Below, one piece after another: positions 10,463 through 13,045 of a stretch of DNA of 64,000 nt. This DNA comes from Escherichia coli (GTDB lineage: Bacteria; Pseudomonadota; Gammaproteobacteria; Enterobacterales; Enterobacteriaceae). A program made the position numbers and the translations under genes. Each line of letters begins with the position of its first letter. Positions within the stretch are counted from its first letter, which is position 1. The stretch lies in NCBI GenBank assembly GCA_902500055.1, contig GCA_902500055.1_4131.1; one strand, written 5' to 3'. The notes beneath the pieces are model-generated. The model saw only the letters and a list, made by a program, of their open reading frames with translations, was not told where the DNA came from and made no database searches.

Positions 10463-10632
10463 GCTTTCACCTCGCTATCTGCTTTGCCTTTACGCCAGGC
10501 CGTTGCTAATTGTTCGCGTTGCCATAAGTCGAGTGATACGTAAAGTTTTGCATTATCACCCTTCGGATATTCGCCAGTAGTACCAATCCGATAAAACAGA
10601 TCTTTCAGTACTGTTAATTCTACCTGGACCAT
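10459..10632 (-). CDS. hypothetical small protein
   Basis: ORF track; start trimmed to Met35 (MVQVELTV) with AGAGGA RBS. Confidence 0.5.
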   Translation of the reverse strand: MVQVELTVLKDLFYRIGTTGEYPKGDNAKLYVSLDLWQREQLATAWRKGKADSEVKA

Positions 10633-10718
10633 TATACTTTCCTCTTTGTTAGGAGGGGAACTATTCCCCTTCCGATATAAAACATTATACACTTTATTCA
10701 GTACAGTGCAAGTACTTT

Positions 10719-10931
10719 TTAATCTTTCAGCCAATGATCCTGAATGAATTTTTCACCGAAACCTTGCTGCATTGATTGTAACAGACGTTCGCGATGAGCG
10801 GCGGCGAATTGCTCAGTACTATGCGTTACACCTGGTTGATATCTGGATTCACCATTGGGGGCGATGTATTGTACATCCCACGGTTTTTCGTTAGTATCAG
10901 ACCATTTACGAACGATTAGTTGACCTTGCAT
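10719..10931 (-). CDS. hypothetical protein
   Basis: ORF track 70 aa. Confidence 0.5.
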   Translation of the reverse strand: MQGQLIVRKWSDTNEKPWDVQYIAPNGESRYQPGVTHSTEQFAAAHRERLLQSMQQGFGEKFIQDHWLKD

Positions 10932-11017
10932 TTTTCTTTCCTCTTAGTGGGGAGAATCATTTTCTCCCCTTCATGTAACTTATTATACAGTACTATAATC
11001 TATTGTCCAGTACTTTT

Positions 11018-11206
11018 TTACAGTTTATGAATTAATTCTTTATCTAAGCGATAGCGTACATTATTAATGGTAACAGCATTATTTTTAATGCTACGCTGTA
11101 CGGGTCCACCAGCAATAACAAACGTTGCTTTATTGCCCCGAACAATGATAGCACTTCCAGGATTACCGAAATCATCTTGTACTAAAATACTTGATAAGTT
11201 TTCCAT
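11018..11206 (-). CDS. hypothetical protein
   Basis: ORF track 62 aa. Confidence 0.5.
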   Translation of the reverse strand: MENLSSILVQDDFGNPGSAIIVRGNKATFVIAGGPVQRSIKNNAVTINNVRYRLDKELIHKL

Positions 11207-11284
11207 TTTTATTTCCTCTTAGTAGGGGAAGATGTTTCCCCTTGATGCAAGTACTATAACAGTACTGAAAACTAAATGCAAGTA

Positions 11285-11641
11285 CTATGATAAAATCATG
11301 ATAGGATATTCACTATCTATCAATACCTCGAATCCGAAACCTTCGTACCATTCTTTAAGATTAAAGGCGTTATCTTCTCCCGTATCGCATTCTAAGATGA
11401 TACAATCTGAATCATCGGCGGCATCGATAAAGGCATTCATTAATTCGTTACCTTCACCATTGCCCCGACTATCAGGATCAACATAAAGAGAATCAATAAA
11501 CGCTACACGGTCATAATCAAGATCCGGTGCAATGATTCCACGTTTAACAAACCAGTACTGCAATTGTGCTACTTTGCCCTGTACCTGATAACCAGTGATC
11601 TCTCCATTGTCAGTAGTACGCGTGATATGTTGTATTCCCAT
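11285..11641 (-). CDS. GNAT-like N-acetyltransferase (putative)
   Basis: Motif YVDPDSRGNGEGNELMNAF (R-G-x-G-x-G acetyl-CoA loop) and C-terminal WYEGFGFE. Confidence 0.45.
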   Translation of the reverse strand: MGIQHITRTTDNGEITGYQVQGKVAQLQYWFVKRGIIAPDLDYDRVAFIDSLYVDPDSRGNGEGNELMNAFIDAADDSDCIILECDTGEDNAFNLKEWYEGFGFEVLIDSEYPIMILS

Positions 11642-11705
11642 GATTACTATCCTCAGTTAAGATATAAAACATTATACACTATCTTTCAGTACTGTCAATT
11701 ACTTT

Positions 11706-11963
11706 TTATCTCATAGATCTATGCCAACAATTACGCGGTTGACGTTTAAAAATACTATCATGATCCTCCTGGCAAGTTATGCAGTACTTACACCCCTTAA
11801 CGACCTGGCGGCGATTCTCAGGGATTTTATCGCCGCAGTCGAGGCAATGTATCAGTGATTCTATTTGTGCGTTAATTTGCGTTCTAGCGTGGTTAACAGC
11901 AGCCTGAATCACTGCGTTAATCTCGTCTTGTTCGGCCCCATCTTTCGCGAATCCTACAGCCAT
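11706..11963 (-). CDS. TraR/DksA-family C4 zinc-finger protein (putative)
   Basis: CLDCGDKIPENRR...CKYCITC four-cysteine motif. Confidence 0.55.
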   Translation of the reverse strand: MAVGFAKDGAEQDEINAVIQAAVNHARTQINAQIESLIHCLDCGDKIPENRRQVVKGCKYCITCQEDHDSIFKRQPRNCWHRSMR

Positions 11964-12293
11964 TATTTTAACCTCATTATAAAAATACTATAGTACTGTA
12001 ATGCGACAATAATATTACTTGTTCTTACTTTTTCCAATCCACATGATACCACATATTCATTACCATATGTGCGGAACGATACACCATGAAAATTTTTATA
12101 CACTTGCACTACTAATCATAACCTTTCGTCTAACCAACTGCATAGAATTATACTACTTTACGCAAATTGATCAAGTATTGATCAGATCATTTTTGATCAA
12201 TATTATACAGTTACATTTGTGCACCCTATGGGTTAGTGACGTTCTCGTCTTGATGTAAGTATTATGCCAGTACTGGATGATATTGTCAATAGA

Positions 12294-12491
12294 TTATTTT
12301 AATTTTTTTCTGTCATTGATTAATGCTTTCAGTACTATACTAATGATTTGCAATGATTCATCAATGACTATAAAATTATTTTCTTTCATTAGATGATAGT
12401 TACCATTGATTGTATATTCTAAGGAGTACTGTTTACGTTTAATTTTTGATAATGTTTCTATTTGTTTTTGTACTGATTTCATGCTAATCAT
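12294..12491 (-). CDS. hypothetical protein
   Basis: ORF track 65 aa. Confidence 0.45.
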   Translation of the reverse strand: MISMKSVQKQIETLSKIKRKQYSLEYTINGNYHLMKENNFIVIDESLQIISIVLKALINDRKKLK

Positions 12492-12596
12492 TGGTAAACG
12501 TCCTGTAACGCATTCTAACGAGATAAACGGTTGAGTACTGGCATTGTATAGGGTAATGAATTAAAGCCCACCAGCGTTAACCAGTGGGCTATAATC

Positions 12597-12740
12597 TTAC
12601 ATCTTGCGGATAATCTTAACAGTATCTTTCACCGATTTACCGTTTTGCTGACATTGCTCGATCATCGCGTATTGTTCTGCGGTCAGATCCTCGCCAGTTT
12701 TTGCCAGTACTGCGTCGATGAATGAATCCAGTGCGATCAT
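12597..12740 (-). CDS. hypothetical small protein (47 aa)
   Basis: Manual translation MIALDSFIDAVLAK...; RBS-like AGAGAGAGAAACAAA upstream; hairpin downstream. Confidence 0.4.
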   Translation of the reverse strand: MIALDSFIDAVLAKTGEDLTAEQYAMIEQCQQNGKSVKDTVKIIRKM

Positions 12741-12832
12741 TTTGTTTCTCTCTCTTAGGTTAAGTTAACTACTGTTTATAAAACTTATTATACAGTACTA
12801 TCAAACGTTGTCAATAGTACTGGTAATATATT

Positions 12833-13045
12833 TTAATTGATGATGGTTAATGTAAAGTTATAATCCCCTGCCTGGTATAGTACTTTATCGCCGAACGTGC
12901 CGACACGTTTCATATTGCAATAGATACCCATAACACTTTTTACATCTTTGATATTCCGAACGCCCGTAATATCCTTGTTTAAATGATCGTGATCAGAAAA
13001 TAAAACTTGTTTTGCATTTTTCAGTACAGTGCAGATATTAGCCAT
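12833..13045 (-). CDS. hypothetical protein
   Basis: ORF track 70 aa. Confidence 0.5.
   Translation of the reverse strand: MANICTVLKNAKQVLFSDHDHLNKDITGVRNIKDVKSVMGIYCNMKRVGTFGDKVLYQAGDYNFTLTIIN

Follow-up and report, generated by a model that had tools for sequence, protein, structure and literature searches.

Adjacent TraR/DksA-type zinc-finger and minimal GNAT acetyltransferase genes in a train of small genes of an Asteriusvirus jumbo phage

The sequence analyzed here, referred to as the window, is a 64,000-nucleotide stretch of contig GCA_902500055.1_4131.1 from an assembly catalogued as Escherichia coli (GCA_902500055.1). The window belongs to Asteriusvirus, the 121Q/PBECO4-like jumbo coliphages with genomes of ~350 kb, and the region around the two genes described below is 90–95% identical to Asteriusvirus genomes. 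Its first ~24 kb form a train of tiny genes, all on one strand. In this train, the original prediction placed a TraR/DksA-type zinc-finger ORF and a GNAT ORF side by side at positions 11285–11963. These coordinates proved exact; the two ORFs lie on the same strand, 64 nt apart (Table 1), and both products score above the Pfam gathering thresholds of their families. The RefSeq record of 121Q labels gp294 "DksA-like zinc-finger protein" and gp295 "GNAT family N-acetyltransferase", and identical labels appear for both genes in several other GenBank/RefSeq Asteriusvirus records. Both genes and both families are already known and publicly annotated, and as such the finding is an ordinary one.

Both genes fall inside the 21.5-kb direct terminal repeat annotated in phage vB_Ec-M-J; a direct terminal repeat of ~21 kb has been confirmed in fEgEco12 by PhageTerm and restriction mapping (PMC13070987). 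Each ORF is preceded by a Shine-Dalgarno sequence (GAGGA and GAGG) located 9–10 nt 5' of its ATG. Codon comparison of the GNAT gene with that of 121Q revealed 24 synonymous and 6 non-synonymous differences, and with its homologue in Shigella phage SF1-1 16 and 5, respectively, while the zinc-finger gene differs from that of 121Q by 12 synonymous and 4 non-synonymous codons. Because synonymous differences far outnumber non-synonymous ones, the sequence comparisons indicate that both genes evolve under purifying selection, and their reality goes well beyond chance.

Table 1. Features of the zinc-finger/GNAT locus; coordinates are positions in the window.
Feature	Position	Strand	Description
Hairpin GGGGAA-acatc-TTCCCC	11225..11241	minus	Leader of the gene downstream of GNAT; the stem-loop in a cassette of PeSL type
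Promoter of the next gene downstream of GNAT	11253..11281	minus	TTGCAT, 17 nt, TATAGT; 3' boundary of the GNAT cassette
GNAT cassette, 420 bp	11268..11687	minus	Absent from PBECO4; ends within the spacers of two promoters
GNAT ORF	11285..11641	minus	118 aa, minimal GNAT acetyltransferase; 121Q gp295
GNAT promoter, consensus sigma-70	11671..11698	minus	TTGACA, 16 nt, TATAAT; 12/12 matches; directly upstream of GNAT
Zinc-finger ORF	11706..11963	minus	85 aa, TraR/DksA-family C4 zinc-finger protein, YbiI type; 121Q gp294
Small conserved ORF	11963..12109	minus	48 aa; 121Q gp293; stop overlaps the zinc-finger start (TAATG)
Promoter-like site	12147..12174	minus	TTGATC, 16 nt, TATAAT; 10/12 matches; upstream of the 48-aa ORF and zinc-finger pair
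Promoter-like site	12261..12289	minus	TTGACA, 17 nt, CATAAT; 11/12 matches

Inspection of the window for perfect TTGACA-N16/17-TATAAT promoters disclosed 15, all of them on the minus (gene) strand and none on the plus strand. A separate consensus sigma-70 promoter serves most of the tiny genes in the train. Many of the window's promoters are followed by a GGGG...CCCC hairpin and then by a ribosome-binding site, and the discriminators of the phage promoters are A+T-rich (30% G+C). Such an arrangement is known as PeSL architecture from the hyperplastic regions of T4-type phages (PMC2839356). Since PeSL-like architecture is combined here with consensus sigma-70 promoters, transcription of early genes by the host polymerase is a reasonable reading of the train. 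The description of this region as an early-gene train in the original prediction is likewise plausible in view of the 15 promoters on the gene strand and the location in the terminal repeat. A literature search for Asteriusvirus transcriptome papers found none, and an Rfam scan of positions 10500–13000 returned no matches. The most upstream promoter-like site in Table 1 is followed by ~60 nt of invariant sequence that contains no ORF.

The organization upstream of the zinc finger suggests that this gene probably occupies the second position in a small bicistronic unit distinct from that of the GNAT, because the stop codon of the 48-aa ORF overlaps the zinc-finger ATG and a 10/12 promoter lies ahead of the pair at 12174..12147. 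As judged from this overlap, the 48-aa ORF and the zinc finger are probably co-transcribed and translationally coupled. We also considered whether the zinc finger has a conserved partner gene. In the T4-like phage SP18 the upstream overlapping gene is mobD.3, which is unrelated to the 48-aa ORF of the window, and this candidate was rejected.

Profile and structure searches (Pfam, PHROG, NCBIfam, PDB and Foldseek) supported both predicted folds, and for neither protein did the profile searches fail. The zinc finger matched Pfam zf-dskA_traR (PF01258) with an E-value of 2.3e-11 and 43.9 bits (cut-off 24.9), as well as PHROG 54, 'DksA-like zinc-finger protein' (1e-18). Its best NCBIfam model was PRK11019 (NF008243), the YbiI type (2e-22); it missed the YbiI equivalog cut-off (79.2 versus 96 bits) and also that of the TraR model TIGR02419 (51.5 versus 59.7 bits). 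Sequence matches in the PDB were YbiI (2kgo; 9e-12) and TraR in its RNA polymerase (RNAP) complexes (6n57/5w1s; 4e-6). An AlphaFold model built from 28 homologues (pLDDT 73) displayed a helix at residues 6–32, a zinc ribbon, and short helices at 49–54 and 62–68. The top Foldseek matches of this model were YbiI, TraR and DksA, with TraR ranking second and third.

To evaluate the zinc finger against functional TraR homologues, we took the features described for these proteins in PMC9239242, namely the DxxDxA helix, the Arg pair and the C-terminal helix. The zinc ligands Cys-40, Cys-43, Cys-61 and Cys-64 (CxxC-x17-CxxC) are invariant in the 28 homologues, as are Arg-51 and Arg-52, which correspond to Arg-48 and Arg-49 in TraR; there, Arg-48 contacts the rim helices and Arg-49 the beta' Si3 (PMC9239242). 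In the tip motif (F5-A-K-D8-G-A10), the second Asp and the Ala of DxxDxA are kept and the first Asp is replaced by Phe; Asp-8 and Ala-10 are conserved in at least 90% of the 28-homologue alignment. The equivalence of Asp-8 and TraR Asp-6 was assigned by residue spacing via YbiI, given that automatic alignments to TraR do not align the tip motif; the distance to the first Cys is 32 residues in the zinc finger and 31 in both TraR (Asp-6 to Cys-37) and YbiI. Conservation within the phage clade is highest in the N-terminal 12 residues and in a C-terminal tail, RNCWHRSMR, which has no counterpart in TraR and is modeled with low confidence (pLDDT 50–61). The predicted C-terminal helix is only short (62–68) and is followed by this tail; in functional TraR homologues, a C-terminal helix contacts beta Si1 (PMC9239242).

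The 118-aa GNAT passed three Pfam models, Acetyltransf_1 (PF00583; E-value 4.1e-9, 37.2 bits, cut-off 20.7), PF13508 (Acetyltransf_7; 33.5 versus 27 bits) and PF13673 (Acetyltransf_10; 26.3 versus 23.6 bits). These matches involve residues ~40–110, the acetyl-CoA core, and only the C-terminal half of the profiles. It also matched PHROG 1249, 'acetyltransferase' (9e-10). An exhaustive HMMER scan revealed 290 relatives, most of them 120–140 aa long and aligning over almost the full length; a word-indexed homologue search had returned almost nothing, so the exhaustive scan was required. The acetyl-CoA pyrophosphate loop, R59-G-N-G62-E-G64, fits the R/Q-x-x-G-x-G/A pattern, and Arg-59, Gly-62 and Gly-64, together with Trp-98 and Tyr-99 of helix alpha4, are invariant in the family alignments. 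RimI was the NCBIfam model matched by most family members (18/31), always far under its cut-off; for the window protein the score was 20.5 versus 86.4 bits (TIGR01575).

The AlphaFold model of the GNAT (pLDDT 86.8, pTM 0.81) contains the beta4-alpha3-beta5-alpha4 core. Two N-terminal strands and one helix (residues 3–33) precede beta4-alpha3-beta5-alpha4-beta6-beta7, and the alpha1-alpha2 arm (beta1-alpha1-alpha2) is absent. The missing arm is shared with GNATs of the size of AcrVA5 and is compatible with GNAT membership. All PDB matches listed by Foldseek at E-values up to 1e-3 (ranks 1 to 22) were GNATs, among them the N-terminal acetyltransferases Naa60, Naa50 and Ard1, and many small viral GNATs appeared among the fold matches. 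The protein is a minimal GNAT and probably active.

The original prediction read a functional signal into the two genes standing side by side, and their distribution among phages does not bear this out. By tblastn, the zinc finger was detected in 677 phage records, including T4-like Straboviridae, several jumbo lineages and the lambdoid Orf73, and the GNAT in only 25. Of 34 close Asteriusvirus records, taken as those in which zinc-finger identity reaches 87% or more, 12 lack the GNAT. The zinc finger without the GNAT is found in PBECO4, slurp01, Sharanji, G17, BF17, four Salmonella SD phages and others, and in the T4-like phages and a Salmonella jumbo phage. The reverse arrangement, a GNAT with no neighboring zinc finger, occurs in SF1-1 and Klebsiella 05F01. 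In order to compare genomic contexts, the loci of SF1-1, 05F01, 7t3 and SP18 were fetched and both proteins were run by tblastn against all fetched loci. No zinc finger was detected near the GNAT homologues in six other loci, and the zinc fingers of SP18 and of the Salmonella jumbo phage 7t3 had no GNAT in their vicinity. A conserved two-gene module was thus rejected: we observed no pairing outside part of Asteriusvirus, and the adjacency is not kept across lineages. A separate pattern-based locus search in viral contigs yielded only 3 loci.

Comparison with PBECO4 illustrates how the GNAT gene could have been gained or lost. Collinearity between PBECO4 and the window extends down to position 11688 and picks up again at 11267, so that exactly the 420-bp block with the GNAT is missing. 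At the junction in PBECO4, the -35 box of the GNAT promoter is fused to the -10 box belonging to the promoter that follows. Moreover, the block 11219–11708 is present in SF1-1, an unrelated phage of 146 kb, with 88% DNA and 95.8% protein identity and among different neighbors. The phage distribution, the PBECO4 gap and the SF1-1 cassette together argue for gain and loss of the GNAT by promoter-cassette recombination rather than as part of a module. The two genes are independent accessory genes with promoters of their own, which became neighbors through cassette shuffling, and their adjacency carries no functional signal.

A joint takeover module, in which the zinc finger would dock on RNA polymerase while the GNAT acetylates the polymerase or a bound factor, is highly improbable on these data. 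Such a module would be consistent with two adjacent genes 64 nt apart on one strand, with the precedent of phiKMV Rac, a phage GNAT acting on the RNAP alpha subunit (PMC7552054), and with the proposal that jumbo-phage GNATs modify RNAP (PMC7824862). However, a separate 12/12 consensus promoter serves the GNAT, each gene occurs without the other in the phages named above, and tblastn of the GNAT at E-values up to 0.01 revealed no similarity to Rac-bearing phages. The distribution among phages largely refutes the joint-module reading, and the pairing should not be treated as a module. The mini-GNAT represents a clean case in which a cassette bounded by promoters moves among phages that are not related.

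The suggestion that the locus serves host transcription takeover or modification held up in part. It is reasonable for the zinc finger, given the experiments on its homologues (PMC9239242), and speculative for the GNAT, where it draws on analogy with Rac only. TraR, lambda Orf73 and four other homologues bind RNAP and inhibit rRNA promoters, and all five phage TraR homologues tested do both and complement a dksA deletion; lambda Orf73 slows host growth and increases burst size (PMC9239242). Over-expression of YbiI rescues the auxotrophy of a dksA deletion (PMC2613031). Since the tested phage homologues bind RNAP and YbiI rescues the dksA deletion, TraR-like binding in the secondary channel of the host RNAP is most likely for the zinc finger, as judged from sequence, model and homologues.

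By this mechanism, host RNA polymerase would make the 85-aa zinc finger early in infection. Its long N-terminal helix would enter the secondary channel of the polymerase, and the zinc domain, with Arg-51 and Arg-52, would dock on the rim of this channel. As with TraR and lambda Orf73, the consequence would be inhibition of promoters whose open complexes are short-lived (those of rRNA and ribosomal-protein genes), and the polymerase freed thereby would be available for the phage consensus promoters with their A+T-rich discriminators. Promoters with consensus hexamers and A+T-rich discriminators are the class that DksA/TraR factors are not known to inhibit.

It is also conceivable, if unlikely, that the zinc finger is not an RNAP regulator at all and that this YbiI-like zinc ribbon handles metal, for example, or binds another host protein via its tail. 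Its closest relative, YbiI, belongs to an iron-regulated operon, has a suggested role in iron metabolism and is unsettled in function (PMC2613031). The lost first Asp of DxxDxA and the invariant tail that TraR does not have could be read the same way, and the C4 zinc-finger family includes members that are not DksA-like in action (PMC9239242). Against this stand the conservation of Asp-8, Ala-10, Arg-51, Arg-52 and the helix length, the placement of the channel tip, made up of the N-terminal 12 residues, among the most conserved parts of the protein, and the rescue by over-expressed YbiI. Imperfect tip motifs, moreover, do not preclude binding, as P2 Orf82 and Gp34 carry such motifs and retain RNAP binding, although their activity is weaker (PMC9239242). 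TraR-like binding in the secondary channel is therefore the reading we retain for the zinc finger. A YbiI-like relative of TraR is widespread in virulent enterobacterial phages (the 677 records above), and the homologues tested so far come only from temperate phages and plasmids. The zinc finger is accordingly a cheap candidate for studying host rRNA shut-down by lytic phages.

For the GNAT, insight comes from its relatives in larger proteins. The family consists of phage proteins of 120–140 aa; a homologous domain also lies alongside ART-PolyVal (ADP-ribosyltransferase) and NUDIX domains in a protein of 2284 aa, and others were found in a protein with PARP and ParB_N and in proteins with Amidoligase_2 or DUF5661. 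A RimI-like GNAT family has been described in the injected polyvalent proteins of gammaproteobacterial phages and predicted to modify proteins (PMC5512222). The similarities suggest that the window GNAT fits this family. Because it fits a RimI-like family of injected polyvalent proteins that are predicted protein modifiers, a host-protein acetyltransferase is our best guess for its function. The enzyme would transfer acetyl to an amino group on a protein of the host as a step in takeover or counter-defence, and the mini-GNAT is thus a candidate protein-modifying effector.

A substrate other than protein, either a small molecule (a polyamine, an antibiotic-like toxin or a nucleotide signal) or a charged tRNA (aminoacyl-tRNA), appears rather unlikely to us. 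Weak similarity to the profiles of phosphinothricin, arsinothricin, streptothricin and aminoglycoside acetyltransferases points in this direction, but all of these matches score far under the respective family cut-offs and extend no further than the common acetyl-CoA core. The gene of one GNAT homologue is flanked by those of RtcB and a CCA-adding enzyme, a setting that would fit an RNA-related role. On the other hand, RimI is the most consistent match, the best fold matches include N-terminal acetyltransferases and AcrVA5, all of them acting on proteins, and the fusion partners in polyvalent proteins are protein-modifying domains. The lack of the alpha1-alpha2 arm would also leave an open site, as in AcrVA5. 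Acetylation of a host protein hence remains our preferred function. Similarity of the protein to either Rac or GNAT toxins was rejected, as no sequence matches appeared in phages or in the PDB, and a link of the GNAT to RNA polymerase is speculative, drawing on analogy with Rac only.

In summary, we lean modestly towards two independent accessory genes, with a TraR-like zinc finger and a protein-acetylating minimal GNAT made neighbors by cassette recombination. A more elaborate proposal is distinctly unlikely. In it, the zinc finger of YbiI type that virulent T4-like and jumbo phages carry would constitute a distinct class of secondary-channel regulators with possibly differing RNAP contacts or effects, and the mobile mini-GNAT would have one particular defence or transcription protein of E. 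coli as its acetylation target, comparable to the action of AcrVA5 on Cas12a. Features that may mark such a class are the substitution of an aromatic residue for the first tip Asp and the invariant basic tail with its Cys, Trp and His. The differing effects envisaged are the blocking of Gre factors or DksA, or the engagement of another surface of the polymerase.

Comparison with known systems places the zinc finger closest to E. coli YbiI (2kgo; PRK11019), with ~43% identity over 68 residues and a similar length (85 versus 88 aa). The two proteins share an N-terminal aromatic-xxDxA motif (FAKDGA in the phage protein, WANDDA in YbiI), the C4 finger and the RR pair. In contrast to YbiI, the phage clade has its own invariant tail, and the phage protein falls under the equivalog cut-off. 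Furthermore, it is phage-borne and served by sigma-70 consensus promoters, whereas YbiI is encoded in an iron-regulated host operon.

F-plasmid TraR and lambda Orf73 (6n57, 5w1s; PMC9239242) resemble the zinc finger in their single N-terminal helix, C4 zinc ribbon and C-terminal segment, in the Arg pair and, by spacing, in the Asp and Ala of the tip (Asp-6 and Ala-8 of TraR, equivalent to Asp-8 and Ala-10). All are carried by mobile elements of Enterobacteria. Sequence identity is only 26–38%, however, Phe takes the place of the first Asp of DxxDxA, and the C-terminal helix of the zinc finger is predicted to be shorter, with the conserved tail in addition. The gene also comes from virulent T4-like and jumbo phages, not from temperate phages or plasmids.

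The architecture of the locus parallels the PeSL cassettes of T4-type phages (PMC2839356, PMC4122927), in which a strong sigma-70 promoter, a GGGG...CCCC stem-loop and a Shine-Dalgarno sequence likewise stand between tiny accessory genes, and genes are gained and lost via recombination between cassettes. Here, however, the cassettes are located in the terminal repeat of a jumbo phage, and the promoter spacer carries AGTACT.

Among GNATs, the window protein is similar over nearly its full length to the domain of the 2284-aa polyvalent protein (36% identity, E-value 9e-10; family of Iyer et al. 2017, PMC5512222). Solo phage versions of that domain exist, it too has RimI-like affinity, and the window protein likewise aligns with the PARP and ParB_N proteins. 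The window GNAT differs in being a stand-alone protein of 118 aa with a dedicated promoter rather than a segment of an injected multidomain protein. AcrVA5, a 92-aa anti-CRISPR GNAT that acetylates Cas12a (6iuf), is also minimal, similar in size and borne on mobile elements, and it is the best size-matched fold match (target-normalised TM 0.75–0.77, rmsd 2.8 Å). Identity is only 16–17%, with no sequence-level match to the window GNAT, and the target must differ, because E. coli has no Cas12a. Finally, phiKMV Rac (PMC7552054) is likewise a phage GNAT and modifies host proteins during takeover; unlike the gene described here, that of Rac lies beside the gene for the phage RNAP, with an overlap into the first structural gene, and Rac acts in Pseudomonas.

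The zinc-finger gene, which encodes an 85-aa TraR/DksA-family protein, is preceded by a 48-aa ORF equivalent to gp293 of phage 121Q (see the table below). Its protein sequence is conserved in three phages and could not be assigned to any family; some records leave the ORF unannotated. Further upstream, a stretch of about 60 nt is identical across three phages and contains no ORF; it could represent a leader region or a small RNA, and an Rfam search covering window 10500-13000 returned no match. A cluster of GATC sites overlaps the promoter that precedes the zinc-finger unit. GATC is otherwise under-represented in the window (141 copies vs. 212 expected).

Coordinates of the features surrounding the zinc-finger and GNAT genes and of their relatives in other loci
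Feature	Location	Strand	Size	Remarks
GNAT cassette	window 11268-11687		420 bp	PBECO4 gap, L014 1775-1779; SF1-1 counterpart, L003 2434-2933
48-aa ORF (121Q gp293)	window 11963-12109	minus	48 aa	stop overlaps zinc-finger start codon
GATC cluster TTGATCAAAAATGATCTGATCAATACTTGATCAA	window 12160-12200		~35 nt	four GATC sites
Invariant ORF-less stretch ACTTACATCAAGACGAGAACGTCACTAACCCATAGGGTGCACAAATGTAAC	window 12200-12260	minus	~60 nt	downstream of 12289..12261 promoter
55-aa ORF, Mosigvirus ST0	L013 514-681		55 aa	zinc-finger C-terminal half, ..YCVGCQSMHDEIFKREPRNCWHRSMR
Mini-GNAT homologue neighbourhood	L007 384-7827			97-kb metagenomic contig; 33% identity

In the Mosigvirus ST0 ORF, which corresponds to PHROG 25948 ("unknown function"), the C-terminal half is all that remains of the zinc finger, and it is fused to an unrelated N-terminus. 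This ORF is either left over from recombination or a novel small protein. The mini-GNAT homologue on the metagenomic contig lies immediately upstream of a gene for a CCA-adding/poly(A) polymerase, with an RtcB RNA ligase gene approximately 4 kb further upstream and five small ORFs intervening. These neighbours hint that some members of the mini-GNAT family function in an RNA-repair setting.

Across the whole window, the most over-represented hexamer was AGTACT, often found as CAGTACTG, with 296 copies compared to the ~22 expected from base composition. Its density is highest at window 4000-28000, and 160 copies fall within ORFs and 136 between them. Part of this excess arises because the promoter spacer AGTACTGTATAAT (24 matches vs. 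0.37 expected) contributes copies; the majority lie outside this spacer. AGTACT may serve as a site of binding, modification or recombination.

The GNAT gene itself belongs to a cassette that is precisely missing from PBECO4, the junction falling inside two promoter spacers, and that the window shares with the unrelated 146-kb Shigella phage SF1-1 at 88% DNA identity. Fifteen promoters match TTGACA-N16/17-TATAAT perfectly; all lie on the minus strand, in window 1-24000 and scattered to 64000. Downstream of many of them lies a hairpin of the form ACATCAAGGGG...CCCC, along with a ribosome-binding site. This series of promoter, hairpin, and ribosome-binding site is an array of PeSL-type cassettes, the promoter and stem-loop units known between small accessory genes of T4-type phages, within a jumbo-phage terminal repeat.
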